In this document: piece by piece, positions 17,774 to 43,255 of the stretch | Layout of the letters: the number at the start of each line of letters is the position of its first letter | Position numbering within the stretch: position 1 is the stretch's first letter | NCBI GenBank assembly: GCA_001794025.1 | Contig: MGJA01000003.1 | Location: 12,909-76,908, forward strand | Direction of reading: 5' to 3' | Length of the DNA stretch: 64,000 nucleotides | Source of the DNA: Candidatus Yanofskybacteria bacterium RIFCSPHIGHO2_01_FULL_41_21 | Lineage (GTDB): Bacteria; Patescibacteriota; Minisyncoccia; 2-02-FULL-40-12; GWA2-44-9 | Translations under genes and position numbers: made by a program | Notes under the pieces: model-generated | What the model saw: only the letters and a program-made list of their open reading frames with translations | The model's database searches: none | What the model was told of the DNA's origin: nothing

Positions 17774-17798
17774 AAAAGCTCCCTTGCGGGAGCTTTTG
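17774..17798. terminator. Intrinsic terminator hairpin (rnhA 3' end, abutting the rnpB 3' end)
   Basis: AAAAGCTCCCTTGCGGGAGCTTTT. Confidence 0.6.
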
Positions 17799-17800
17799 GT

Positions 17801-18171
17801 CTTGTAAACAATAAGCCGAGTTCTGTTCCGCTAGTTAGCGGAGGGTAACCATTTATCTGGTCTCGGCATTACTGCCGGACTCAAGCGATCTACTTATAAC
17901 TCACAGCCGAAGCTGTAAGCTTTGATCTTGCACCCCGATAAGTGTTTAGCCGTTTCACTCCCGATCTTTTAACCCTGATCGGAACTAAGCTGTAACCTTT
18001 GATAAATCAATGGTCTGGGTTTAGCTCGCCCTTACTTTCGCTTAGGCCGTCTCTGCTCGCAACTCTCGCGTCACCGCGGACGGGAATTACCCGCTATCGT
18101 TTCCGCCTCATCGGCAGATGGTGCTCGGACTTTCCTCTCCTTAATCCATAAGGACTAAGGAGCGATTACCT
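17801..18171 (-). ncRNA. rnpB: RNase P RNA (bacterial type)
   Basis: On the minus strand, the P4 halves GGAGAGGAAAGTCCGAGC and ACAGAACTCGGCTTAT are present. P1 is CTTGTAAAC pairing with GTTTACAAG at the termini. Length ~370 nt. Confidence 0.8.
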
Positions 18172-18275
18172 AGTTTACAAGATAATACAATTATACTCTT
18201 TTTTGATATCAAAAGCAAACTCAACAGATTGAAAAATAACATAGGACATGATAAAGTTAAATACGTCAAATGAAT

Positions 18276-19755: not shown

Positions 19756-20859
19756 ATGCGTATTGCCTTTGTTCATGAATATCTCAATCAATTCGGCGGG
19801 GCCGAGCGGATGCTTGCTGTTCTTGCGGAAATGTTCCCGACGGCGCCAATTTATACTCTACTTTACGACGAAAAAGCCACACGGGGATTATTTAAAGGCC
19901 GAGATATTAAGACCTCATTCCTTCAGAAATTCCCGGGGGCCGTCAGACATCACGAATGGTATCCACTTCTGATGCCTCTGGCCATTGAACAGTTTGATTT
20001 TTCTGCTTTTGATGTAGTTATTTCTATTTCTGCTTCATTTGCAAAAGGCATTATTACAAAACCAACCACTCGCCATATTTGTTATTGTCTTACACCTCCT
20101 CGGTTCCTTTGGGATAACAGCCAGAAGTTTAATAAGGATTTTGGTTTTCCTTTTTTAATTAGATTTGCCAGTCAGCCCCTCATCTCATACTTACGAATGT
20201 GGGATCGTTCGGCCTCCGATAGAATTGATGAATTTTGGCGAATATCGGATTTTGTGGGAAAAAGAATTCAAAAATATTATCATCAAACCTCCCGATTGAT
20301 ATATCCACCAGTGGATATATCAAAATTTACAATTTCTCTCCCTTCGGGAGATCTTTACGACAATTTACAGTTTGAGCCGTATTTTTTAATGGCTGGCCGG
20401 CTGGTTTCTTATAAAAAATTTGATGTGGCGATTAAAGCGTTCAATGAATTAAAATTGCCATTGAAAATTATTGGCATCGGGCCGGAGATTGCAAATTTAA
20501 AACGTTTAGCCAATAAAAATATAGAATTCCTTGGCCAAGTAGATGATAAAGAACTAGCCCGTCGTTATCGTGAAGCCAAAGCGTTAATATTTCCCCAAGA
20601 AGAGGACTTCGGTATCGTGCCGTTAGAAGCGATGGCTTCAGGGCGACCCGTGATTGCTTATCGTGGTGGTGGCGCCGGAGAAACTGTTATTGAAAACGAG
20701 ACGGGAATATTTTTTGATACTCAAACTCCCCAAGCCATTATTGAGGCGGTTAAAAAATTTGATAGTAATAAATTTTCGCCCGCCCGCTGTCGAGCACGGG
20801 CTGAAGAATTCAGCACAGAAGTTTTCCGAAAAAACATATTTAAATATTTAAATATTTAA
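19756..20859 (+). CDS. GT4 family glycosyltransferase
   Basis: EDFGIVPLEAMASGRPVIA E-x7-E motif. Confidence 0.75.
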   Translation: MRIAFVHEYLNQFGGAERMLAVLAEMFPTAPIYTLLYDEKATRGLFKGRDIKTSFLQKFPGAVRHHEWYPLLMPLAIEQFDFSAFDVVISISASFAKGIITKPTTRHICYCLTPPRFLWDNSQKFNKDFGFPFLIRFASQPLISYLRMWDRSASDRIDEFWRISDFVGKRIQKYYHQTSRLIYPPVDISKFTISLPSGDLYDNLQFEPYFLMAGRLVSYKKFDVAIKAFNELKLPLKIIGIGPEIANLKRLANKNIEFLGQVDDKELARRYREAKALIFPQEEDFGIVPLEAMASGRPVIAYRGGGAGETVIENETGIFFDTQTPQAIIEAVKKFDSNKFSPARCRARAEEFSTEVFRKNIFKYLNI

Positions 20860-20870
20860 ACTTTTATTCT

Positions 20871-21998
20871 ATGATTATCGGCGTTGATATTCGTCCCATG
20901 GTTGGCCTAAAGACCGGTATTCAAGAATATACCGAGCAGATTTTGGCTCACATGATTCATCTTGCGCCGGAACATCAATTTAAATTATTTTATTCTTCTT
21001 TTCGCGGTTCAATACCGGAACGATCTTGGATGCATGCGCCAAATGTTCAATTAATTAAATATCGGATTCCTAATAATTTACTATTCTTTACGGGAAGTGT
21101 TTTTGGATATCCGTTTCTGGATAATCTTATCGGCGGAGCGGATGTATTTTTTTCTCCCCATTTTTTTCAGGCACCATTGTCAAAAAAATGTCGGCGGGTA
21201 ACAACATTTCATGATCTTTCCTATCTTCGTTTTCCCGAATTTTTTACTTGGCGTAAATATTGGTGGCACACCGTTGAAATGAATCCGGCCTATCAAGCCC
21301 ATTTTTCAAATCAAATCATTGCCGTTTCCGAGTCAACCAAAAATGACTTGGTTGATTATTATCACATTGACCCTGCTAATATTTTTACAATTCATTCCGG
21401 GACTACTATGTCTCGGCCAACAAAAGAGATGCTTTCTCAATTCAAAAAAGACCATAATCTTCCGGATCGTTTTATATTACATGTCGGTACGCTTGAGCCA
21501 AGAAAAAATATCATCGGGTTAATTAGGGCTTTTAATATTTTAAAAGACCAAAATAAATATGAAGATGTTGAGTTGATACTTATCGGGAAAGAGGGTTGGC
21601 AATTTCAGGATATTTTAAAAGAAATTAAAAATTCTTCTCATAAGTCGCAAATTCGACATCTCGGTCATTTAACTGATGATTTGGCTTCTTATTATGGTCT
21701 AGCAACGATGTGCATTTGCCCTTCTTTTTTTGAAGGTTTTGGATTTCCGGCTCTTGAAGCTATGGCTTGTGGCACTCCGGTCATCGCTTCAGCCAACTCC
21801 TCGTTACCGGAAGTTGTGGGTGATGCCGGTCTTTTCATAAACCCATACAATATTTCTGAAATTTCTGAAGCGATGGAGATTGTGTTGTCCGAACCGATGG
21901 TTCGTAACCGAATGATTAAAAATGGTCTTGTGCGGGCTACAAAATTTACATGGGAAGATACCGCTCGTCAAACACTTGGTATTCTTACTCGGGAGTAG
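20871..21998 (+). CDS. GT4 family glycosyltransferase
   Basis: EGFGFPALEAMACGTPVIAS motif. Confidence 0.75.
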   Translation: MIIGVDIRPMVGLKTGIQEYTEQILAHMIHLAPEHQFKLFYSSFRGSIPERSWMHAPNVQLIKYRIPNNLLFFTGSVFGYPFLDNLIGGADVFFSPHFFQAPLSKKCRRVTTFHDLSYLRFPEFFTWRKYWWHTVEMNPAYQAHFSNQIIAVSESTKNDLVDYYHIDPANIFTIHSGTTMSRPTKEMLSQFKKDHNLPDRFILHVGTLEPRKNIIGLIRAFNILKDQNKYEDVELILIGKEGWQFQDILKEIKNSSHKSQIRHLGHLTDDLASYYGLATMCICPSFFEGFGFPALEAMACGTPVIASANSSLPEVVGDAGLFINPYNISEISEAMEIVLSEPMVRNRMIKNGLVRATKFTWEDTARQTLGILTRE

Positions 21999-32068: not shown

Positions 32069-32973
32069 AGAAAGCATTTAAAAGAATTTTTAGAACCGGG
32101 TGGCTTAATTTTAAACGTAATAGTTATCTTTCTTTTGGCACGACCGGCGTGATGGCTTTGGTTTTGCTTTTATTTTCCGGTTTGATGGTTTTAAATTATA
32201 TTTCGGGACAAATCGTAACCGGCCTGGAAGACAAAGTTGACGTTAGTGTTTATTTTAAAAATGATGCCTCGGAAGATCAGGTGATATCGGTAAAGCAAGA
32301 TCTTGAATCCCAACCGGCCGTGGCTCGAGTAACCTATATTTCCAAAGACCAGGCCTTGACTGATTTCAAAGCCAAACATGCCGGTGATGCTTTAATTCAA
32401 CAATCACTGGCCGAATTAACCGATAACCCCTTACAATCGTCGCTCAACATTAAAGCCAAGGAGTCCACTCAATACGCTTCTATCGTTACTTTTCTGGAAG
32501 GCAACAAATTGCGGCCCGTCATTGATAAGATTAATTTTTATGAAAACGAAGCCATCATTAATCGCGTCCAGGGTATTTCTCGCGGGGTCGGCAATTGGGG
32601 TCTGGTGGCGACACTTATTCTGGCTTTCATTGCCGTTCTAGTAACCTTTAACACGATTCGTTTGACCATCTACAATCAAAAAAATGAGATTGAAATTATG
32701 CGTTTGGTCGGCGGTTCCAATTGGCACATCAAAGCCCCGTATCTTATTGAAGGGGGATTGTATGGCGTCTTTGCATCTTTAATAACTATCGCCGTCTTTT
32801 ATCCAACCCTCTGGTTTATATCTTCAAAAATTGGCATTCTTATTCCCGATGTTTCCCTTATCGGTTATTTTGTGGCCAATGTTTTTCAATTTATTCCCAT
32901 TATTTTTGCACTGGGGATTGCGTTGGGGGTTTTGTCCAGCTATATAGCGATAAGAAGGTTTTTGAGAGTGTGA
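32065..32973 (+). CDS. ftsX: Cell division permease FtsX
   Basis: 4-TM FtsX topology. Overlaps the ftsE stop. Confidence 0.8.
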   Translation: MKKAFKRIFRTGWLNFKRNSYLSFGTTGVMALVLLLFSGLMVLNYISGQIVTGLEDKVDVSVYFKNDASEDQVISVKQDLESQPAVARVTYISKDQALTDFKAKHAGDALIQQSLAELTDNPLQSSLNIKAKESTQYASIVTFLEGNKLRPVIDKINFYENEAIINRVQGISRGVGNWGLVATLILAFIAVLVTFNTIRLTIYNQKNEIEIMRLVGGSNWHIKAPYLIEGGLYGVFASLITIAVFYPTLWFISSKIGILIPDVSLIGYFVANVFQFIPIIFALGIALGVLSSYIAIRRFLRV

Positions 32974-33062
32974 GATAGTGATTAGCGAGTAGCCAATAGC
33001 GAATAGTGTCATCAAAAAAGCCATTGTAAAAATGGCTTTTTTGATGTATAGTAATTTTAATT

Positions 33063-33133
33063 TGCGGGATAGTGTAATGGTAGCACGCATGACTCTGAAT
33101 CATGAAATCCAGGTCCGACCCCTGGTCCCGCAG
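33063..33133 (+). tRNA. tRNA-Gln (anticodon CUG)
   Basis: Acceptor TGCGGGA/TCCCGCA, U8, D-stem GTGT/GCAC, anticodon loop CTCTGAA, T-stem CCAGG/CCTGG. Confidence 0.75.
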
Positions 33134-33137
33134 CTAC

Positions 33138-33150
33138 GTTGAGATAGGTT
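33138..33150 (+). repeat. 13-bp direct repeat GTTGAGATAGGTT (copy 1), 4 nt after tRNA-Gln
   Basis: Identical copy at 35197-35209; related CCAGCCAAGGTTGGAG at 33976-33992. Confidence 0.7.
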
Positions 33151-33187
33151 CGGCTTCCGAGGTGCCTTATAAACTAATTAATAATTT

Positions 33188-33529
33188 ATGGAGAATATAA
33201 ATGTATGGCTAGTTATTTTGGGAGTCAGTTTAGCTTGGGGATTATTACATCATAAGGCAGGATATTATGCAGATATGAATAAACATAATGAGGCCTTTAA
33301 ATTTTTGGAATTTTGGCGTTGTTGTCTTAACTACTTTATAGCATTAGTTGTCGCATATTACTTTGTTTCAATAAGATGGGGGTATATTAATCAGGGGGGT
33401 AATCTTTATATAGGAGATTTTATCTTGGGAACCATTTTTCTTATTGGTATTTTCGGTTGGCTACCTTATTTTATTAAAAATATTACTGAGGGGATAAGTG
33501 CAATTTTCACTAAATTATTTACTAAATAG
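33188..33529 (+). CDS. Hypothetical small membrane protein
   Basis: 3 TM helices; first gene of the accessory array. Confidence 0.5.
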   Translation: MENINVWLVILGVSLAWGLLHHKAGYYADMNKHNEAFKFLEFWRCCLNYFIALVVAYYFVSIRWGYINQGGNLYIGDFILGTIFLIGIFGWLPYFIKNITEGISAIFTKLFTK

Positions 33530-33543
33530 ACCCACTACAAACC

Positions 33544-33960
33544 ATGATGACACCAAATGAAGCAGAAAAAATTATAAACAATTACGGAGCGGCATTAGGC
33601 GTCGGCACAAATGGTACTGCTCGTCTGATCTCTTTGCTCCCAGCTTCCAAAGCAAAGATTAGGTATGCTTTTTATGTTTACATTGCTGAGCTGGTAAAAA
33701 ACAGTCAACTTACTAAGGAGATAGGTAATAATCTAGTTGGTGCTTATATAGGATTAAGATCATTTATTGATGACAAAAAGGCTGATAAGTTTAATAAAAT
33801 TCACAGACAAATAGAAGAAGAAGTAAAGACAAAAAATAATTCAGATATCGACACAGAGGAAAAGAAAGAATATATGGATTTTATTAAAGAAGTGTATGGA
33901 ATCATGGCCGATATGGCCGAAATTAATGACTATATACGAGAGTGCCAGGAAGATATATAA
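33544..33960 (+). CDS. Hypothetical protein (138 aa)
   Basis: ORF 14 nt after the previous gene. No motif recognised. Confidence 0.45.
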   Translation: MMTPNEAEKIINNYGAALGVGTNGTARLISLLPASKAKIRYAFYVYIAELVKNSQLTKEIGNNLVGAYIGLRSFIDDKKADKFNKIHRQIEEEVKTKNNSDIDTEEKKEYMDFIKEVYGIMADMAEINDYIRECQEDI

Positions 33961-34098
33961 ATAACTAGTCCAAGGTGTCCAGCCAAGGTTGGAGGTATCG
34001 TGGATGACCAGAAAGCGAGATTTTGCTACAATTTTTACAACGAGTATAATGACCTAATCTAATTGATAAAGAACTTGATGGTTTATTGAAATAAAACT

Positions 34099-35166
34099 AT
34101 GGCACTAATAATTTCACAAAAAGGTAAAAGAACTCAAAAGATAGACAAGTCTGATTTTGAAAAGGAAGGAAACCTTCAGAGCTATATCCATGAAAATCCG
34201 GAATCTATTCCGGTGTATGAGATAGAAGAAAGCAAGCGGCTTTTTGTCGTAGCAAGGGAGTTTAAAACCGAATCAGGTCCGATTGATGCTTTAGCTATAG
34301 ATAAAGATGGCGATATTTATGTCGTTGAAACCAAGCTATATAAGAATCCGGATAAGCGAACCGTAGTGGCGCAGGCACTTGATTATGGTGCATCTCTTTG
34401 GCGTCATAGCGATTATAGTGAATTTATAAAGCTAATTAACGAAGAGATAAATAAAAGATTTAAAATCAGTTTTGAGGAAAAAGTTAGAAATTTCTTTGAT
34501 ATAGATGAAGAACAGACAGGGGCATTATTAGAAGCGATCAGAACGAACCTTCAACAAGGAAATATTAAATTTGTAATTTTAATGGATGACGTTAGCGACC
34601 GGCTAAAAGATCTGATTGTCTATATCAATCAAAACAGCCAGTTTGATATTTATGCAGTTCAGATGGAATATTACAAGTTTGAAAGTTATGAAATAATGAT
34701 CCCCAAATTATTCGGTGTTGAAGTTAAAAAAAGCATGACGAGCAACTCCGCTGGCAGTCCGAGGAGAAAGTGGGATGAGCAAGGTTTTTTTGAAGAAGTA
34801 AAGAAAGTGTTTTCAAAATCCGATTTTGAGTTAATTTTAAAGTTCTACACTTTTTCCAAAGAGTCAGCCGATGAAATTCATTGGGGTACTGGTGTTAACC
34901 AAAGTTCTTTTTCTGCTGGGTTTAATAAGTTAGGGAATAGGCCCTTGTTCGTTCTCCTTTCTGACGGAAGAATGAAAATTTCAACCGAATACCCAAAACG
35001 AGGAGCAACTAAAGAGCAAATTTCCAATCTAGATCATCTTAATTTAGAGCTTAAGAAAATAGGATTGGAAGTGAACCCAAAATCCGAGAGAACTGTTTTT
35101 ACTCTACCTGAGTGGTCATCTAAACTAGATGTTATGATAAAAACTATTAAGAAATCAATAGATTGA
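34099..35166 (+). CDS. NucS/DUF4263-superfamily PD-(D/E)XK nuclease-domain protein (nuclease domain N-terminal)
   Basis: GPIDALAIDKDGDIYVVETK...VVAQALDYGASLW matches the G-x-ID-x-LA-x-D...VV-E-x-K...Q-L-x-Y core of NucS-like nucleases. Confidence 0.55.
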   Translation: MALIISQKGKRTQKIDKSDFEKEGNLQSYIHENPESIPVYEIEESKRLFVVAREFKTESGPIDALAIDKDGDIYVVETKLYKNPDKRTVVAQALDYGASLWRHSDYSEFIKLINEEINKRFKISFEEKVRNFFDIDEEQTGALLEAIRTNLQQGNIKFVILMDDVSDRLKDLIVYINQNSQFDIYAVQMEYYKFESYEIMIPKLFGVEVKKSMTSNSAGSPRRKWDEQGFFEEVKKVFSKSDFELILKFYTFSKESADEIHWGTGVNQSSFSAGFNKLGNRPLFVLLSDGRMKISTEYPKRGATKEQISNLDHLNLELKKIGLEVNPKSERTVFTLPEWSSKLDVMIKTIKKSID

Positions 35167-35196
35167 ATTCTAACATCGAACCAAATTACCAGCCAA

Positions 35197-35209
35197 GTTG
35201 AGATAGGTT
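35197..35209 (+). repeat. 13-bp direct repeat GTTGAGATAGGTT (copy 2)
   Basis: Identical to 33138-33150. Downstream CCCGAGACGCATCGTGGCCTT resembles 33151-33170. Confidence 0.7.
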
Positions 35210-35285
35210 ATTTTGCCCGAGACGCATCGTGGCCTTACTTCTATTCCTATCCCGTAAAAGCATATCGACTGAGTGCCGTATTCAA

Positions 35286-35320
35286 GAACATAAAACCGCC
35301 AATATAGCGGTTTTATGTTC
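35286..35320. terminator. Strong palindromic hairpin (14-bp arms) in a long AT-rich leader
   Basis: GAACATAAAACCGC CAATATA GCGGTTTTATGTTC. Confidence 0.5.
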
Positions 35321-35580
35321 TTTCGCGGATGAGTGAAACAGTCCTTGTGGATAAGTTTGATCAAGGGGCAAAAGTTAGTAGTATATAGTTACTATTTTAA
35401 AAATATTTTTTGTAAAAATTATGAAAGAAAACTCTTATAAAATAAGGGTTACTTCAATTAGGATGTAATACATCTTTACATAAAAACCGATAATTACCGA
35501 TATAAACAGATGAAACTCTTGATATTATATACCATTAAGTTATAATTGTTTTTATGAGTATAGATTATTAACTAAAAATT

Positions 35581-35964
35581 ATGAGCAACACCGACCCACT
35601 TCAAAAATTAGTTGTCAGTGAATCGCAGGCAGTTGATAGACAGGCCCTTGCAGATCTATTGTCACCATATCTATCAATAAATAAAGAAACTCAGTCTTTT
35701 GATTTTTCGGGAGCCTTCCTGGAATTGACAAGTGCGGATAGGATTCTAATTCTTCTTTCTGCCGCGAAAGCCAGGAATCTGATCCTTGGTTTAGATGAAA
35801 AAATTAGACCATTGGAAATAATAAAGATGGAGATTGCGCCTGAGGGGACTATTAAAAATACGCTGAAGAAGCTTCTCGCATCTAAAGACATCAAGGCAGA
35901 CGAGGGTAAATATTACCTGCCGAACTATAAGCTCTCCCAAGTTATAGCCCGATTCAAAAAATAA
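35581..35964 (+). CDS. Hypothetical protein A (127 aa) of a tightly linked three-gene unit
   Basis: Preceded by a 414-bp AT-rich leader. 10-nt gap to the next gene. Confidence 0.5.
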   Translation: MSNTDPLQKLVVSESQAVDRQALADLLSPYLSINKETQSFDFSGAFLELTSADRILILLSAAKARNLILGLDEKIRPLEIIKMEIAPEGTIKNTLKKLLASKDIKADEGKYYLPNYKLSQVIARFKK

Positions 35965-35974
35965 TTAAAATAAT

Positions 35975-36388
35975 ATGGACAACACTAATTTTGAGCAGAA
36001 AATATTGGAGCGTATGTCGGCACTTGAACAGAGGGTTGATAAACTTGAGAATGGCGGAAGTAAAACCGTTAATGCTCATGGTGTCGCAAAAAAGTTATCA
36101 ATCAAAGAGTTTATTATGACTAAAAAACTTGATGACGATGTTAAACGTACTTTGGCGATCGCGTACTTTATTGAACACATGGAAAATACAAAGCCATTTA
36201 ATACCGAAGATCTTAAAAAGGCCTTTCGTCTCGCAAAGATTTCGTTGCCATTGAATATTAATGACAAGATTAACATGAATATTCGTGTCGGCAGGATAAT
36301 GGAAGCAGAAGAAAAAAAGGATTCCAAGAAGGCCTGGGAACTTACAGCAACTGGGGAGACTTTCGTGGAGAACGAACTTAATAAATAG
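35975..36388 (+). CDS. Hypothetical protein B (137 aa; coiled-coil N-terminus)
   Basis: ILERMSALEQRVDKLENG heptad pattern. Confidence 0.5.
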   Translation: MDNTNFEQKILERMSALEQRVDKLENGGSKTVNAHGVAKKLSIKEFIMTKKLDDDVKRTLAIAYFIEHMENTKPFNTEDLKKAFRLAKISLPLNINDKINMNIRVGRIMEAEEKKDSKKAWELTATGETFVENELNK

Positions 36389-36400
36389 TTGATATTCCAA

Positions 36401-37069
36401 ATGAAAGAAAAAAGGTCTGCAAAAAATTCTACTGATGCCCTAATTATTCTTTGGGAAGAAGGATTCTTTAAGAAATATCAGAACTTTAAAAGTGTCTGTG
36501 AAAATCTATCGAGCCGAGGTAATAATTTTCCCTACTCAAGTTTAGCTATAGCTCTTAGGCAAGCTAAATTTTTAACGCGGAGAGGTAAACGGGGATTTTT
36601 TGAGTATATTCAAAAACACAAAGCTGATTCGGAAGTAATAAAAGCCATTGCTCCAGGTTTATTCTCTGATGAGTTATTAAAATCGCTTCAAAAAGATTTC
36701 AAGATAGAGCTAGAAGATCTCAAATACAATTATGGTAAGAGTGGCAACTGCACAGCATTTTTATTACGGAAGATTTTAGAAAAATTAATTTATATTACTT
36801 TTGCAAAGCACAATCTCATTTCAAAACTAGAAGATAAATCTCAAACTGGTCGGTTTGTTGGACTTGAAGCGATGATTAGATTAGCTTCTTCAGAAAAAAT
36901 AGAGGGAGTTCCTTTTCTCATATCAAAAACTGCAAATGAAATTCAGAGCATTAAATTTTTAGGGGACACATCTGCCCACAATCATTTGGTGGAGGTCGAT
37001 ATGAAAACTATAGTCCCACAAATGCCCTACATAATTACTGCGTATAAGGAATTAGTTAAAAAATTATAA
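36401..37069 (+). CDS. Hypothetical protein C (~222 aa)
   Basis: ATG 12 nt after the gene B stop (TTG at 36389 also in frame). No motif recognised. Confidence 0.5.
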   Translation: MKEKRSAKNSTDALIILWEEGFFKKYQNFKSVCENLSSRGNNFPYSSLAIALRQAKFLTRRGKRGFFEYIQKHKADSEVIKAIAPGLFSDELLKSLQKDFKIELEDLKYNYGKSGNCTAFLLRKILEKLIYITFAKHNLISKLEDKSQTGRFVGLEAMIRLASSEKIEGVPFLISKTANEIQSIKFLGDTSAHNHLVEVDMKTIVPQMPYIITAYKELVKKL

Positions 37070-37298
37070 TATGAACAAACCACAAAAATTGTTTGTAGAA
37101 CGCTTATTTAGATGGTAGGTATGGTGTGAAAAAATCACATACTACGAAACCACTCGTGACGACTGGTACTCAGGCAAATGCGATTAAGAAAGCAGAGAAT
37201 GTGGATCCTAATGAGTTGTTAGTTGAGTGTGTTAGAGATACAAAAGTTGGAGGGCGAGATGGGTGGTGTAAACCCTAATAAACTGCTAATATTTCATT

Positions 37299-38483
37299 AT
37301 GGAAAAAGAAAAAATACTCCGACAGTTCCAAGACTTCTTGGTTAGCTATAATGCCGTCCAAAAAGACGAGATCTGGCAAAAGCAGTCCAATATCTTTAGG
37401 ACTTTTTGGAACCAAAGAGTCCTAAATGATCAGGTCAAAGAACTTGATGATTTTGAAATCGATAACGTAATTCGACTGATCGACTATAATTCTAAGGGCA
37501 AAAAAGCTGGCGATGAGGCGGTTGCCAAGGTTATGATCCCGCAAGGTGTTTGGCGAAAAATGTTCAATCAGTTTAAAACGGATAAGAAACTCGCCCAACT
37601 TGTCGATCAAATAATGGGAACATTTGAGCAAGATAAACGCATAAAGCTAATTGACGAACTTTATAAATATAACGAACCGTACCGCAACAGTTTAACTGGC
37701 CAAAGTGGTAATGCTGTTAATTCTTTTATATTTTTATGGGCACCATTAAAAAACATCAGTATCATTTCTTTAAAAGATAGGCAGAAATTAATTCAATTCC
37801 TAGATGTCCAGAATGGACCAAACTTCGAGAATGATTCTACTGCCAAGAAGATTGTTGAATCTAACGATTCTCTGGCCTCAAGCTTTGCTAAAATATTTGG
37901 CAGTCAATATTCTCCTAGAACAATATGCTCCTTCTTTTACAGCCCTCTGATTAAGAATGAATGGCGGTCTGAGGATATTGGAGAAGAAACTGTCCCTTGG
38001 GGTGGTTGGAAAAAATCACCAGAAGAAGATTTTGCACCAATTATAGCCGAATCATCTATGCTGGGCGACCCAGCCCTTTTCTATATGGAAAGTCAGCTCG
38101 AAGATTTTCTGATAGAAAATTGGGACAAAACAGAACTTGGTCAGAAGTACGATTTAATTGAAGAAGAAGGCGAAGTAGTTAGCCAACAATATAGAACAGG
38201 AGTGGGTCTAATAGATATTCTCGCCCGAGACAAGAAAACCAAACAACTTGTTGTTATTGAATTAAAAAAGAATCAAACAAGTGATGATACTGTGGGTCAA
38301 CTCGCTAGATATATGGGATGGCTCGAAGAAAATAAAACTAATGGTAAGCTAACCAAGGGTATTATCATAGCCGCCCAATATGATCAAAGATTGTACTATG
38401 CTCTAAAGAAAATGCAGGACGCAGAGGTTTATTTATATCGAGTGGATTTTAAACTTACAGAGTTCAAAGATGGCTCAAAATAA
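37299..38483 (+). CDS. NucS/Shedu(DUF4263)-like protein with C-terminal PD-(D/E)XK nuclease domain
   Basis: C-terminus GVGLIDILARDKKTKQLVVIELKKNQTSDDTVGQLARYMGWL matches the NucS-like/DUF4263 catalytic core. The N-terminal ~300 aa are unassigned. Confidence 0.55.
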   Translation: MEKEKILRQFQDFLVSYNAVQKDEIWQKQSNIFRTFWNQRVLNDQVKELDDFEIDNVIRLIDYNSKGKKAGDEAVAKVMIPQGVWRKMFNQFKTDKKLAQLVDQIMGTFEQDKRIKLIDELYKYNEPYRNSLTGQSGNAVNSFIFLWAPLKNISIISLKDRQKLIQFLDVQNGPNFENDSTAKKIVESNDSLASSFAKIFGSQYSPRTICSFFYSPLIKNEWRSEDIGEETVPWGGWKKSPEEDFAPIIAESSMLGDPALFYMESQLEDFLIENWDKTELGQKYDLIEEEGEVVSQQYRTGVGLIDILARDKKTKQLVVIELKKNQTSDDTVGQLARYMGWLEENKTNGKLTKGIIIAAQYDQRLYYALKKMQDAEVYLYRVDFKLTEFKDGSK

Positions 38484-38600
38484 GCGGATTAGCTAAAAAA
38501 GTGACACTCTCAAGTAGTGTCCATTTTATCCCTTTTTAGCCTGCCTGAGACGCTTCGTTTGTGATAAGATTTGGATAATTAACCTTTCAATAAAAACTCA

Positions 38601-38963
38601 ATGAAAAAGATTTACTACAATAAACTTATACGCGATAAGATACCCGAAAAGATTAAACGGAACGGCGGGGACTACAAGATAAATAAGCTTAATCAGAAGC
38701 TTTTTGAGGTAGAACTCTTAAAAAAAGTCGGAGAAGAGGCGAGTGGGCTTTTATCTTCTAAGACAAAAGAAGAAGTTACCTCTGAACTTGCCGATATTAT
38801 TGCTGTGATAGAGGAGATAAAAAAATTAAAACATATTACATCAAAACAAATTTCAGAAGCATTGAAAATAAATTTTGATAAAAAGGGAGGATTCAATAAG
38901 AAACTATTTTTAGTATGGTCTTCCGATACCGGATATAAGACCAATGAAAAGAGGAACAAATAG
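38601..38963 (+). CDS. MazG-like / PRA-PH-like nucleoside triphosphate pyrophosphohydrolase
   Basis: YNKLIRDKIPEKI...EEASGLL...ELADIIAVIEEI pattern typical of small all-alpha NTP-PPase proteins. Confidence 0.5.
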   Translation: MKKIYYNKLIRDKIPEKIKRNGGDYKINKLNQKLFEVELLKKVGEEASGLLSSKTKEEVTSELADIIAVIEEIKKLKHITSKQISEALKINFDKKGGFNKKLFLVWSSDTGYKTNEKRNK

Positions 38964-39066
38964 TTTAGAGATTTTAACCGAATCAAGGAGAGAGAAAAAG
39001 GGGTCAGGTCCCTTTTCTTCTGCTCGAGGCCCATCGTTATGATAAGATAAATAATAAGTTAATTTT

Positions 39067-39462
39067 ATGAGTGAACAAATATCAACGCCGGAAAAAGTAT
39101 CTAGAGAGCAAGCTCTCGCTATGTATAGAAAATTTGTAGAGCGTGGAATTACCAGTCCCGATGCTTTAGATTTGAATGATCCCGAAGTTATTGAAGCGAA
39201 TAAACTATTTGAAAAATGGGACGCGCAAGAGAGTGTAAAAGGAGATTTTGAAAGGCATAATTTTGAAAAGACCAAGTTTTATGTTGATGCTGGATTTACC
39301 GACTCTAATTATCTTGGGGATGTTCTAGGATGGCTCTTTCAAGATGCGGGAGATATAGAAAAGCAACCAGATAATCCCACTCGAGTTCAATTGCGAAGCG
39401 ACTACGCAAAAGAGATAAAAAAGATCAGGGACTTATTGGGCTTGGCCACCGGTGGGAATTGA
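39067..39462 (+). CDS. Hypothetical protein (131 aa)
   Basis: ORF preceded by intergenic modules M1/M2. No motif recognised. Confidence 0.45.
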   Translation: MSEQISTPEKVSREQALAMYRKFVERGITSPDALDLNDPEVIEANKLFEKWDAQESVKGDFERHNFEKTKFYVDAGFTDSNYLGDVLGWLFQDAGDIEKQPDNPTRVQLRSDYAKEIKKIRDLLGLATGGN

Positions 39463-39492
39463 GCCGACAGTCGGCTCAATTCCCACCATTTG
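39455..39492. repeat. 38-bp perfect palindrome GGTGGGAATTGAGCCGACAGTCGGCTCAATTCCCACC (copy 1); identical copy at 42567-42603
   Basis: Exact duplicate 3.1 kb away. Followed in both cases by TTTGAGCCGAT... and CCGAGACACGTTGCTA modules. Confidence 0.8.
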
Positions 39493-39577
39493 AGCCGATG
39501 CTGTTATTGATCAAGGTGGTGTTCAGCTAAGGTTAGACGGGTTATTCCGCCTGAGACACGTTGCTAGTTTAAAATTT

Positions 39578-40798
39578 ATGAAAAATATTCCATTTACAGA
39601 AAAACAAATTAGAGATTTTGTAAAAGATCATCCAACGCCATTTTATGTTTATGATGAAGATGGAATTCGCCATTCTGCCCGGAAACTTATCGATAGTTTT
39701 TCGTGGAATTCTAGTTTTAAAGAATTTTTTGCGGTTAAGGCAACTCCAAATCCAAGTATCTTAACTATTCTAAAAGAAGAAGGTTGTGGCGCTGATTGTA
39801 GCTCGTTTCCAGAATTGCTTCTTGCTGAACGTGTAGGAATACGAGGAGAAGATATTATGTTTACCTCAAATGATACGCCAGCTGAAGAATTCAGAAAAGC
39901 TAGTGAACTTGGTGCGATCATTAATCTAGATGATCTTTCCCATCTTGATTATTTGGAAAAAGAAGTTGGCTTACCAGAATTAATCAGTTTTCGCTATAAT
40001 CCCGGATCTTTAACGGGTAATGTTATTATCGGGACACCAAAAGAGGCAAAATTTGGGATTACAAAGGAACAATTACTTGAAGCATACCGGATCGCAAAAG
40101 AAAAAGGAGTGAAACGTTTTGGTCTCCATACGATGATTGCTTCCAATGAGCTTAATCCACAACATTTTATAAATACAGCGGAGATGATTTTCGATATTGC
40201 CTTAGAACTGAAAGAAAAAATTGGAATCAAAGTGGAGTTTATTAACCTGGGTGGTGGGTTTGGAATTCCTTACAAACCTGAGCAAGAAGAGCTTGATCTT
40301 TCCGTTGTGTCGGAGGGAGTCCAGAAACTCTATGAAAAAATGGATATGGCACCAATAAGGTTATTTTTTGAGAGTGGTCGATACATTACTGGTCCGCATG
40401 GTTATCTTATTTCCCGTGTACGCCATATAAAGAACACCTACAAAAAATACATTGGCCTTGATGCTTCAATGGCAGATCTTATGAGACCTGGAATGTACGG
40501 TGCATATCATCACATCACCGTTCTCGGTAAAGAAAAAATGCCATACGATGTAACCTGTGATGTGACAGGTTCATTGTGTGAAAATAATGACAAGTTTGCT
40601 GTCGACCGCAAGTTACCTGAAATAAACACTGGAGACATAGTCATCATTTATGATGTCGGGGCCCATGGCCACTCGATGGGGTTTAATTATAACGGTAAAC
40701 TTAGATCTTCAGAATTTCTACTCGGATCAAATGGTAAAATGAAAATAATACGTAGAGCAGAAACTATAAATGATTATTTTGCAACCTTAAATTTTTAG
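39578..40798 (+). CDS. Fold-type III PLP-dependent decarboxylase (DAP / ornithine / carboxynorspermidine decarboxylase family)
   Basis: TPFYVYDE ... FFAVKATPNPSILTIL ... GGGFGIPY motifs of the Orn/DAP/Arg decarboxylase family. Confidence 0.65.
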   Translation: MKNIPFTEKQIRDFVKDHPTPFYVYDEDGIRHSARKLIDSFSWNSSFKEFFAVKATPNPSILTILKEEGCGADCSSFPELLLAERVGIRGEDIMFTSNDTPAEEFRKASELGAIINLDDLSHLDYLEKEVGLPELISFRYNPGSLTGNVIIGTPKEAKFGITKEQLLEAYRIAKEKGVKRFGLHTMIASNELNPQHFINTAEMIFDIALELKEKIGIKVEFINLGGGFGIPYKPEQEELDLSVVSEGVQKLYEKMDMAPIRLFFESGRYITGPHGYLISRVRHIKNTYKKYIGLDASMADLMRPGMYGAYHHITVLGKEKMPYDVTCDVTGSLCENNDKFAVDRKLPEINTGDIVIIYDVGAHGHSMGFNYNGKLRSSEFLLGSNGKMKIIRRAETINDYFATLNF

Positions 40799-40902
40799 CT
40801 CCGTCCGAAACGTGTAGTTTATGATAAGATTTGGATAGCTACTAATTGCCTTGCGGGGCTTGACCGTTTGACGGTTCCAGCTCGAAGTGATTCAGTATAA
40901 TT

Positions 40903-41463
40903 GTGTCATCCATGAATTCTTCTATTTATCAGATTAAAATTACTCTCAAAGACTCAAAACCACTAATTTGGCGAAGATTTTTAGTTTTTTCAGATATTTC
41001 TTTATATAAGTTGCACAAAGCCATCCAAATTATTATGGGATGGGAGGATTATCATCTGCATCATTTTGAAGTAGGAAGAAATTTTTATGGAATTCCAGAC
41101 CCAGATTTTGATGATGGTACTATAAATGGAAAAGGGATCCTATTGAAAGATATTGTTCCGAAAATTCCGTCTCAGTTTTTGTATGAGTATGATTTCGGAG
41201 ATAGTTGGGACCATATTATATTGGTAGAGAAAGTTATGAATTCAGAGTTGAAAATGAAGCATCCAATTTGTATTGACGGTAAAAGAGCTTGCCCTCCAGA
41301 GGATGTTGGAGGTATTTGGGGGTACCAGCATTTTTTAAAGGTTCTTGGAAACCCTAAACACAAAGAATATCGGGATTTAAAAGAGTGGATAGGTGGCAAA
41401 TTTAACCCAGAACACTTTAATAAAGAATTAGTTAATGAAATTTTAAAAAAGATTAAGTATTAG
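40903..41463 (+). CDS. pRiA4b ORF-3-like family protein (PF07929-like)
   Basis: LYEYDFGDSWDHIILVEK and 'IKITLKDSKPLIWRRFLV' motifs. Confidence 0.55.
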   Translation: MSSMNSSIYQIKITLKDSKPLIWRRFLVFSDISLYKLHKAIQIIMGWEDYHLHHFEVGRNFYGIPDPDFDDGTINGKGILLKDIVPKIPSQFLYEYDFGDSWDHIILVEKVMNSELKMKHPICIDGKRACPPEDVGGIWGYQHFLKVLGNPKHKEYRDLKEWIGGKFNPEHFNKELVNEILKKIKY

Positions 41464-41477
41464 TGTTAAAATATAGT

Positions 41478-41521
41478 CATAACCGTGAAAATACAACAAT
41501 TATCAGCGTTTTTCACGGTTA
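41478..41521. promoter_or_regulatory. 15-bp-arm inverted repeat (CATAACCGTGAAAAA ... TTTTTCACGGTTATG) followed by a TTGACA -35-like hexamer upstream of fic
   Basis: Perfect inverted repeat with an ~18-nt spacer. TTGACA at 41524-41529. Confidence 0.4.
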
Positions 41522-41560
41522 TGTTGACAGAGTCGTGAAAAAAGAGTAAGATTACAGTAT

Positions 41561-42448
41561 ATGGTAAAAGTACTCAACGCCTTCAATAAAGTGAGTTTTC
41601 TTCGTGAGAGATACTATAAAGCATCAATAGGTAAGGATGCGCTTATTACGCTTATATCTGAAACTGAAGTTGTCGACCAGGTTTACAACTCTAATGCTAT
41701 TGAGAATAGCACTCTCACTCTTGAAGAAACCGAAAAGATACTTCTTCAAATTGATTTAGATAGATTCATCTCCGAACGAGAAATTTTTGAAGCAAAAAAT
41801 TTGGCGCGAGTTGTATCGTACATAGACAAAAAAGCTAAGGAACAAGAACTTACTCTTGAGGTGATTTTATCACTTCATAAAATGTTGATTTCAAATATTC
41901 GCGACGATGTTGCGGGGAGGTTTAGAAAGGATGATGAACATGTTCGTGTGGGGAATCATATTGCTCCTAATCCAAAAGAAGTAATGAGTCGTCTTGAAAA
42001 AATGCTGACTGAGTACAATGCAACGAGTCATGAAAACATAATTAAACGTATTGCCAGATTACATCTCGCTTTTGAACACACCCATCCATTTGTCGATGGT
42101 AATGGACGTATTGGACGTGTTATTAATAACTATTTACTGATTAGAGAAGGATTTGTGCCAATAAACATAAAATTTATTGATAGAAAAAAATATTATGAAG
42201 CTTTTAAAGAATTTGATGAAAAGGGCGTCGTTACTATTATGGAAGAAATAGTAGGCAGGGCGCTTACCAATAGCTATCATAAAAGATTGGCCTATTTAGA
42301 AGGTAAAAAAATTATCACTCTCATTGATTATGCAAAAAATAACAAACTTTCTCATTCTAATTTGATCAATAAAGCTAATCGACAAACCATCGAAGCTTTT
42401 TTAGAAAAGAATATTTGGAAAATCGGAGTGGATGATGTAATTAAATAA
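41561..42448 (+). CDS. Fic/Doc family protein (adenylyltransferase-like)
   Basis: Canonical Fic motif HPFVDGNGRIGR. Confidence 0.85.
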   Translation: MVKVLNAFNKVSFLRERYYKASIGKDALITLISETEVVDQVYNSNAIENSTLTLEETEKILLQIDLDRFISEREIFEAKNLARVVSYIDKKAKEQELTLEVILSLHKMLISNIRDDVAGRFRKDDEHVRVGNHIAPNPKEVMSRLEKMLTEYNATSHENIIKRIARLHLAFEHTHPFVDGNGRIGRVINNYLLIREGFVPINIKFIDRKKYYEAFKEFDEKGVVTIMEEIVGRALTNSYHKRLAYLEGKKIITLIDYAKNNKLSHSNLINKANRQTIEAFLEKNIWKIGVDDVIK

Positions 42449-42566
42449 TAAATAAAAATAACTTATAAATTCTGCTCGAGGCCTGTCATTTATGATAAGA
42501 TTTGAATAGTTAACCCTTCGATAAAAACTCAGGGTAATAAACACTCTGTAGGGCCTGTCGCTGGTG

Positions 42567-42603
42567 GGAATTGAGCCGACAGTCGGCTCAATTCCCACCA
42601 TTT
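42567..42603. repeat. 38-bp perfect palindrome (copy 2)
   Basis: Identical to 39455-39492. Confidence 0.8.
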
Positions 42604-42646
42604 GAGCCGATACCGTTCTGGTCTGGTCCGAGACACGTTGCTAAAT

Positions 42647-43255
42647 ATGGATTTAAAATCAACATATAATTATATAGCTGAAGATTGGACCAAAGACCAT
42701 GAGAACGATACTTGGTGGATTGCTGGTACAGACAAATTTGCTTCGTATTTAAAGCAAGGCAGGAGTGTCTTAGATGTTGGTTGTGCCAGTGGAATGAAAT
42801 CGGAATATCTTGCTAAGAAAGGTTTTGTTGTAACGGGAGTTGATTTCTCAGGCAAGATGATTGAGTTAGCACAAAAAAGAATGCCCTCCCGATTCTTTTT
42901 TGTGAGAGATATAAACGAACCCTTAAATTTAAAATCAAAATTTGATGGAATATTTGCTCAAGCTGTTTTACTTCATGTTCCAAAAAATAATATCAAAAAA
43001 GTTCTAGGCAATTTGCTTGAACTATTAAAATCGAATGGGTATATTTACATCGCTGTTAAGAAAGTAAACGAGGGACAGATTGAAGAACAAGTTATAAAAG
43101 AAAACGATTATGGCTATGAGTATGAGAGGTTTTTCAGCTTTTATACTTTAGATGAGATGAGAGGATATCTTGAAGAATTTGGATTAAAGATTGTATATAG
43201 CGACGTCATTTCAACTGGTAAAACTGAGTGGATCCAAGTTATTGCTCAAAAATAA
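42647..43255 (+). CDS. Class I SAM-dependent methyltransferase
   Basis: Motif I LDVGCASGMKSEYLAKKG. The ATG follows the CCGAGACACGTTGCTAAAT module, as at 39578. Confidence 0.7.
   Translation: MDLKSTYNYIAEDWTKDHENDTWWIAGTDKFASYLKQGRSVLDVGCASGMKSEYLAKKGFVVTGVDFSGKMIELAQKRMPSRFFFVRDINEPLNLKSKFDGIFAQAVLLHVPKNNIKKVLGNLLELLKSNGYIYIAVKKVNEGQIEEQVIKENDYGYEYERFFSFYTLDEMRGYLEEFGLKIVYSDVISTGKTEWIQVIAQK

Follow-up and report, generated by a model that had tools for sequence, protein, structure and literature searches.

The window analysed here is a stretch of 64,000 nucleotides (nt) from a contig of Candidatus Yanofskybacteria, a member of the candidate phyla radiation (CPR, Patescibacteria), and the element under study is a cluster of three small genes within it, designated A, B, and C (Table 1). 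The three open reading frames (ORFs) lie on the same strand, with spacers of 10 nt between A and B and 12 nt between B and C. A preliminary description made from the letters alone had already reported these ORFs of 127, 137, and about 222 amino acids (aa) and the 414-nt leader ahead of A (35167–35580), and all of these values were confirmed. An in-frame TTG at 36389 would extend C by four codons to 226 aa, but the ATG start is preferred because it agrees with the public annotation and with the N-termini of homologues. Each gene has dozens to hundreds of homologues in other phyla at 45–83% identity, and therefore A, B, and C are real genes and not chance ORFs. Scans against the Pfam, NCBIfam, PHROG, and PADLOC models gave chance-level matches only, with no nucleotidyltransferase match for A or B; in PADLOC-DB v2, A and B had no match and C matched only RT_UG4 at chance level (E = 0.0026). 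The idea that the three proteins are paralogues of one another was dropped, as hhalign showed no relation among them.

The unit is a compact and conserved operon with its own promoter. Close packing is kept in relatives, in which the median gap is 3 nt between A and B (51 pairs from the two seeded sets described below and the window) and 2 nt between B and the next gene. A sigma-70-type promoter-like site stands just upstream of A, and sites with at least 10 of 12 matches were found within 150 nt upstream of A homologues at 27 of 40 loci, compared with 5% of random windows and 9% of shuffled sequences. The leader also holds a hairpin, which had been described as a palindrome with 14-bp arms and is indeed present, with longer, perfect arms of 16 nt. 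It has a folding free energy of −26.9 kcal/mol (z = −7.3), begins 118 nt past the stop codon of the upstream gene, and ends 258 nt ahead of A. From this position, it most likely terminates transcription of the upstream PDC-S11-like gene and marks the 5′ boundary of the transcription unit of the trio. We had considered the palindrome as an operator of the trio and rejected this in favour of a terminator, given its position and its single occurrence in the window. An Rfam scan of the leader gave only sub-threshold matches to the hairpin, and thus no known RNA element.

Domain architecture of the encoded proteins

The AlphaFold2 model of C, calculated from a 79-sequence alignment, was confident (predicted local distance difference test score, pLDDT, 86). 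It consists of an N-terminal winged helix followed by a helical domain with the four-to-five-helix up-down arrangement of the HEPN superfamily. The model of B shows a long N-terminal helix (residues 4–30), which is a probable coiled-coil dimeriser, and a winged helix (residues 43–133). The trio had been described as carrying no motif that could be placed; this no longer holds for C, with its winged helix and DUF4145-like HEPN domain, or for B, with its helix and winged helix, whereas the coiled-coil N-terminus proposed for the middle protein is supported as a helical one by the model. The alignment of A with the 52 homologues found shows a conserved N-terminal segment, DPL..L.VSESQ, and a winged-helix-like pattern in the C-terminal half. 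Residues ~50–127 of A probably form a winged helix, judging from this pattern, and the haloarchaeal relatives of A are annotated as "helix-turn-helix domain-containing protein". Searches of PDB sequences with the profiles of C and A returned nothing.

Instead of the canonical HEPN motif Rx4-6H at the start of the last conserved helix, C carries K-x7-H. Pfam DUF4145 (PF13643), which is a branch of the HEPN superfamily (PMC3710099), matched 31 of the 79 C homologues, all of them below threshold (best E = 0.0012). The conserved loop of the C family, KFLGDx[SA]AH[ND], occupies the place of R..GN..aH in DUF4145, and together with the fold this motif supports a relationship of remote homology. We counted motif residues in an exhaustive hidden Markov model (HMM) search of 1.84 billion cluster representatives, as the species-level genome scan for C used the motif itself as the search pattern and its counts of motif invariance are therefore biased. 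The exhaustive search gave only 279 matches at E ≤ 1e-3, and the C family is therefore compact. Among the 83 matches that cover the motif, position 185 is Lys in 79, Arg in three, and Gln in one, and His193 is invariant (83/83); Arg123 is present in every sequence covering its position. The three Arg-containing members, which are the most divergent in the family, read RF[LI]GNxxAH, the canonical DUF4145 signature. Lys185 thus occupies the position of the catalytic Arg, with K..GD co-varying with R..GN. RAZR, a DUF4145 ribonuclease (RNase) with demonstrated anti-phage activity, uses catalytic Arg146 and His154 with the same x7 spacing (PMC13017515). The alignment with the R-x7-H motif of DUF4145 and RAZR thus indicates that the site of C is a variant of the HEPN active site rather than an absent one. 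His193, Asp189, Arg123, and the loop as a whole are near-invariant across bacteria and archaea.

Conservation and genomic context of the module

A scan of one genome per species seeded with C yielded 64 loci, all but three of which are labelled metagenome-assembled genomes (MAGs). The bacterial hosts include CPR phyla, Omnitrophota, Acidobacteriota, and Bacteroidota, as well as MAGs labelled Proteobacteria and Spirochaetia, and the archaeal hosts include DPANN, Thermoplasmata, and Hadarchaeia. In these loci the HEPN gene is invariably the last in a same-strand run, behind one to five small genes. The order A-B-C of the window was found in 10 of the 59 loci with room upstream, and in 31 of the 59, A-B is replaced by small proteins of ~70–130 aa, present in one to four copies. 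The main families of these small proteins are homologous to the N-terminal winged helix of C itself. Two stand-alone families matched it in hhalign with probabilities of 98.5–99.9%; a third reached 53% and is better linked through a family of ~116 aa (92.5%). At ~28 loci, this winged helix at the N-terminus of C has diverged further and matches the ~116-aa family with a probability of 84%.

A metagenome scan seeded with B yielded 80 loci. A lies immediately upstream of B in 47 of the 66 loci with room, and a weak relative of A (F7) occupies this place in four more. A K-type HEPN gene follows in only seven of the 52 loci with room; in the remaining loci, the terminal gene encodes a protein of 220–260 aa of one of four other types. 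The commonest type (~21 loci) combines a winged helix with a PLD-like domain (PADLOC PDC-S05, E = 5e-12; weak Pfam PLDc_2). Another (~12 loci), recognised by motif only, is an R-x6-H protein with a C-terminal segment that looks winged-helix-like by eye. Four to five loci have a G.RNSCAH protein with a weak DUF4145 match, and six have a Hypoth_Ymh HEPN protein with Pfam matches above threshold (E = 2e-21 to 6e-33), which in five of the six is fused to the type of winged helix found in C. The slot behind A-B thus accepts four HEPN types, two confirmed and two assigned by motif only, and a PLD-like protein resembling PDC-S05. PDB sequence searches with these sister effectors gave nothing useful. 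In four metagenomic loci (L084, L090, L108, and L110), we observed a second, divergent B-like gene (hhalign 93% to B) and up to five or six small genes ahead of the effector, so that the module varies in size.

The trio is therefore one combination in a modular family, in which the A-B pair is conserved, effectors can be exchanged, and the winged helix of C has stand-alone paralogues. The preliminary description had counted independent occurrence of the three genes in other genomes against a functional unit, and such occurrence was partly observed because the trio is not obligate: A and B stay together, but at least five different genes take the terminal place, and C usually accompanies other small winged-helix genes. 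Conserved adaptors with swappable nucleases are typical of conflict systems and are not evidence against one.

The commonest Pfam families among the 144 immediate neighbours were DNA methylases, Type I specificity subunits, and restriction enzymes, and a restriction-modification (R-M) methyltransferase or a Type I subunit lies within the flanks, which are often short, at 33 of 139 loci. At six loci (L001, L006, L009, L069, L084, and L140), the module is inserted between hsdM and hsdS in the same orientation. At four loci (L001, L006, L009, and L065), the hsdS start and the C stop codon overlap. Relatives nevertheless mostly retain a promoter of their own, as the counts given above show.

Searches of plasmids with A gave two haloarchaeal matches, on pSTJ003 of Halobacterium hubeiense (L145, NZ_LN831305.1, 73488–75663) and on a Haloarcula plasmid (L146, NZ_CP119795.1, 1941–3914), which are the only relatives from cultured organisms among the PLSDB plasmids and INPHARED phages. 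A had no match in phages, and B had none in plasmids or phages. Because the mobile-element collections gave no other match, a phage or plasmid origin is unsupported, the two haloarchaeal plasmids aside. Both of these encode an A-like protein, a B-like protein (HMM E ~1e-18), a second A-like protein, and a protein of 270–330 aa. The module genes overlap and are convergent with a gene for a DUF87/HerA-like ATPase; on one plasmid, the module is divergent from, and near, polB and orc1/cdc6. The terminal gene is annotated as "AAA-associated domain" on one of the two plasmids, and a PDB sequence search with its product found nothing useful.

The accessory island of the window copy

In the window, the trio is part of a low-GC accessory island (~32900–43000; GC 0.32–0.38, against 0.40–0.45 upstream) that begins at a tRNA-Gln gene; the low-GC stretch around the trio has a GC content of 0.34–0.37. 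Both genes flanking the trio are of the PD-(D/E)xK type. The upstream gene had been called a NucS-like nuclease; the nuclease type holds, with PDC-S11 as the main match and NucS_C as a weak one. For the downstream gene, which had been called DUF4263/Shedu-like, the nuclease type likewise stands and NucS_C is strongly matched, but the Shedu assignment is not supported, as no Pfam DUF4263 match was found at E ≤ 1 and the only PADLOC models matched were PDC and Cas4 ones. A cassette array had also been proposed. Integron cassettes usually lack a promoter and have attC at their 3′ end, with an intI tyrosine recombinase nearby. No integrase or recombinase was found among the 10 mid-size ORFs of the window that were scanned; repeated intergenic elements do exist, and the trio has its own strong promoter.

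One of these elements is a repeat of ~45 nt, CAGC(T/C)AAG(G)TT(G/A)GA..GGTTATT..GCC(C/T)GAGAC. The first copy directly adjoins the tRNA-Gln gene at its 3′ end, and partial copies lie near 38541, 39018, 40800, and 42470. The 3′ half recurs between several of the gene "cassettes", joined to TATGATAAGAT(T), a sequence similar to an extended −10 box. The repeat may serve as a site of recombination or as a promoter module, or it may be a repetitive extragenic palindromic (REP)-like element. A 37-nt perfect hairpin, GGTGGGAATTGAGCCGACAGTCGGCTCAATTCCCACC, followed by ATTTGAGCCGAT, is present in two copies that are 96% identical, and a related half-motif lies at ~43262. Outside the island, the window contains a bacterial RNase P RNA, an ordinary housekeeping feature, and two adjacent GT4 glycosyltransferases. 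The main Pfam match of the latter is Glycos_transf_1, with lower matches to "GT4-conflict" (E = 2e-6 and 1e-12), and they are probably ordinary cell-envelope enzymes.

Table 1. Positions of the trio, its predicted domains and signals, and other features of the window
Feature	Position	Strand	Details
Gene A	35581–35964	+	127 aa
Gene B	35975–36388	+	137 aa; locus tag A2735_00285, publicly annotated as hypothetical
Gene C	36401–37069	+	222 aa from ATG; locus tag A2735_00290, publicly annotated as hypothetical
Winged-helix domain of C	36428–36613	+	Residues 10–71, from secondary structure of the model
HEPN-fold helical domain of C, remotely DUF4145-like	36668–37060	+	Residues 90–220
Predicted active-site loop of C	36953–36982	+	K185-F-L-G-D-T-S-A-H193-N194, conserved motif
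Codon of R123 of C	36767–36769	+	Within the invariant helix LLRKILEK of the HEPN domain; found in every aligned sequence
Hairpin in leader	35284–35322	none	Perfect 16-nt arms (35284–35299, 35307–35322), 7-nt loop
Sigma-70-type promoter-like site	35519–35546	+	TTGATA-16-TATAAT, 11/12 matches, ends 34 nt before start codon of A
tRNA-Gln	33063–33134		Start of island
Upstream flanking gene	34099–35166		PADLOC PDC-S11, E = 7e-19; weak NucS_C, E = 0.002
Downstream flanking gene	37299–38483		PADLOC PDC-S02, E = 1e-47; NucS_C, E = 4e-13; YhcG_C
MazG-like gene	38601–38963		In island
PLP-dependent decarboxylase	39578–40798		Mid-island
PRiA4_ORF3	40903–41463		In island
Fic protein	41561–42448		In island
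~45-nt intergenic repeat	33131–33175, 35189–35235, 39523–39570
37-nt hairpin with following segment	39451–39505, 42563–42617
RNase P RNA, class A	17797–18181	−	Rfam 133.9 bits
Two GT4 glycosyltransferases	19756–21998

Functional interpretation and comparison with known systems

On balance, we favour the interpretation that the trio is a self-promoted three-gene conflict module of an abortive-infection or toxin-antitoxin-like kind, and we hold it with slightly more than even confidence. The preliminary description had proposed an uncharacterised defence or addiction module, and this is the best reading because relatives are repeatedly nested in R-M operons; the compact operon and the low-GC island after tRNA-Gln, with PDC-S11- and PDC-S02-like candidate defence nucleases on both sides, agree with it, while the notion of an obligate trio does not survive. 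C is the predicted effector. Its fold, the equivalence of its motif to that of a proven family, and its interchangeability with canonical HEPN and PLD-like domains point to a HEPN RNase. In the proposed mechanism, the winged helix of C would recognise a target or partner, and the fused HEPN domain, of the DUF4145 branch, would dimerise and cut RNA, so that a cell under attack by a phage or plasmid stops growing. A and B, made from the same message just ahead of C, with B probably dimerising through its N-terminal helix, most likely repress the operon at the leader, keep the effector inactive until a cue from an invader, or both; they form the conserved core of the wider family with its exchangeable last gene. 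For the copies nested in R-M operons, the cue may be failure of the Type I R-M system, as for PrrC. The nesting in Type I R-M operons, together with the analogy to PrrC and an earlier proposal that a HEPN RNase is held latent by, or backs up, an R-M system (Anantharaman et al. 2013, PMC3710099), suggests a second line of defence coupled to restriction.

Several observations weigh against this interpretation. The main reason for caution is the replacement of the canonical HEPN Arg by Lys in ~95% of members, which leaves RNase activity not assured. The window C itself gave no match to Pfam DUF4145 at E ≤ 1, so that the gathering threshold is not reached, and a Foldseek search of the PDB with C returned winged helices only, all of them weak matches that did not reach E ≤ 1e-3. 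None of the three proteins matches a PADLOC model, the window copy does not adjoin an R-M system, and no relatives of C were found in PLSDB plasmids, INPHARED phages, or IMG/VR. The haloarchaeal copies end in a protein of 270–330 aa that does not look like a nuclease, near replication genes, a context that fits plasmid maintenance as well as defence. It is also mechanistically awkward for one antitoxin pair to neutralise unrelated effectors. Nearly all loci come from MAGs or raw metagenome contigs, for which binning and context are imperfect.

A bolder form of the conflict-module interpretation, which we regard as possible but doubtful, would make A-B the sensing and regulating core of a modular immune family. 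Its exchangeable effectors, from four HEPN-type families and one PLD-like nuclease family, would be slotted into Type I R-M operons and triggered when an invader escapes restriction. The family would thus act as a "guard of R-M", like PrrC but with winged-helix adaptors for the ATPase, and its K/D site would be a functional re-invention of the R/N site of HEPN domains. As part of the same tentative proposal, this undescribed immune family would span CPR bacteria, DPANN and other archaea, Acidobacteriota, and Omnitrophota.

Three other explanations need to be weighed. The trio could be a plain three-component toxin-antitoxin or addiction module, consisting of regulator, antitoxin, and toxin as in omega-epsilon-zeta, that stabilises an island or plasmid without a dedicated anti-phage role. 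Small DNA-binding genes ahead of a nuclease-type gene, reading frames that overlap or nearly do so, and a promoter of its own would all be expected of such a module, as would the location of A-B relatives on two haloarchaeal plasmids, on one of them near orc1/cdc6 and polB, and of the window copy in an accessory island after a tRNA gene. We nevertheless consider it unlikely, since the pairing of the same A-B with unrelated effector folds is unusual for a direct protein antitoxin, the repeated hsdM-hsdS nesting and the start/stop overlap with hsdS point to coupling to immunity, and sequenced plasmids and phages hardly ever carry the module.

Improbable, in our judgement, is a transcription-control complex, in which winged-helix A, B, and C, the latter with a non-catalytic HEPN domain for ligand binding or dimerisation, would time neighbouring R-M or nuclease genes in the manner of R-M controller (C) proteins or BrxR/CapW-type regulators. 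Winged helices modelled in B and C and predicted for A, the Lys in place of the catalytic Arg, the position of the module upstream of hsdS/hsdR in several operons, and the existence of non-catalytic HEPN domains (Anantharaman 2013, PMC3710099) would all suit such a complex. A scaffold, however, would not need the near-invariance of His193, Asp189, Arg123, and the entire loop; sister modules hold intact RNxxxH or R-x4-H HEPN domains and a PLD-like domain in the equivalent position; and the window has no R-M system that such a complex could control. A complex for DNA segregation or maintenance of a mobile element, built from TubR- or AspA-type winged-helix proteins that bind a centromere and an adaptor, appears very improbable: the winged-helix similarity on which it would draw is generic, being shared by dozens of families at similar Z, the module neither contains nor adjoins a partition NTPase in the window or at most loci, the terminal genes are of nuclease type, and most copies are chromosomal, many of them within R-M operons.

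The genomes of CPR bacteria and DPANN archaea are tiny, and few defence systems have been recognised in them; most of the systems known so far were discovered in cultured Proteobacteria and Firmicutes. The module described here is almost confined to uncultured lineages and escapes the PADLOC, Pfam, and PHROG models. If the conflict-module interpretation is true, it would extend the immune repertoire of CPR and DPANN by a multi-gene HEPN system, show clearly how an adaptor pair can be combined with swappable effectors, and offer a natural Lys-for-Arg variant of the HEPN active site that is open to test; the haloarchaeal plasmid copies are a genetically tractable entry point. If the trio is merely an addiction module, it would be an ordinary one.

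That HEPN effectors act in defence and that DUF4145 genes occur in R-M operons is already known in outline. The K/D variant of the active site, the winged-helix fusion with stand-alone paralogues, and the conserved A-B pair with swappable effectors were not found in literature searches or in PADLOC v2. The ROQ/HEPN region of Roquin (4txa and 4qik) resembles C in fold only (8% identity) and was not seen by Foldseek; in this eukaryotic protein, the ROQ winged helix is inserted between two HEPN halves and the HEPN domain is non-catalytic. RAZR (PD-T7-4; Nature 2026, PMC13017515) is a single-gene system that joins a zinc finger, a Cys4 zinc ribbon, to a DUF4145 HEPN RNase with the Arg146/His154 pair, whereas C has a winged helix, Lys185/His193, and two or more small winged-helix partner genes, and shows no detectable sequence match to the PADLOC models. 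In contrast to HEPN-MNT type II/VII toxin-antitoxin systems, the partners of C are winged-helix proteins and not minimal nucleotidyltransferases, and C lacks the canonical Rx4-6H motif and has an extra N-terminal domain. BxaP and Ishtar1 are likewise DUF4145-type HEPN proteins found beside other defence systems, with an experimentally shown anti-phage or anti-plasmid effect (PMC10799925, bioRxiv 2026.07.06.735840), but they are single genes with a HEAT-like or beta-rich C-terminal domain and have no winged-helix partner pair. In their insertion between hsdM and hsdS, the relatives of the module resemble PrrC/RloC and the DUF4145 genes of R-M operons. They differ from PrrC/RloC in that C, with 222 aa comprising only a winged helix and a HEPN domain, has no ABC-ATPase domain and the effector is accompanied by winged-helix proteins, and the window copy differs further in its position outside an R-M operon, between PDC-S11- and PDC-S02-like nucleases.

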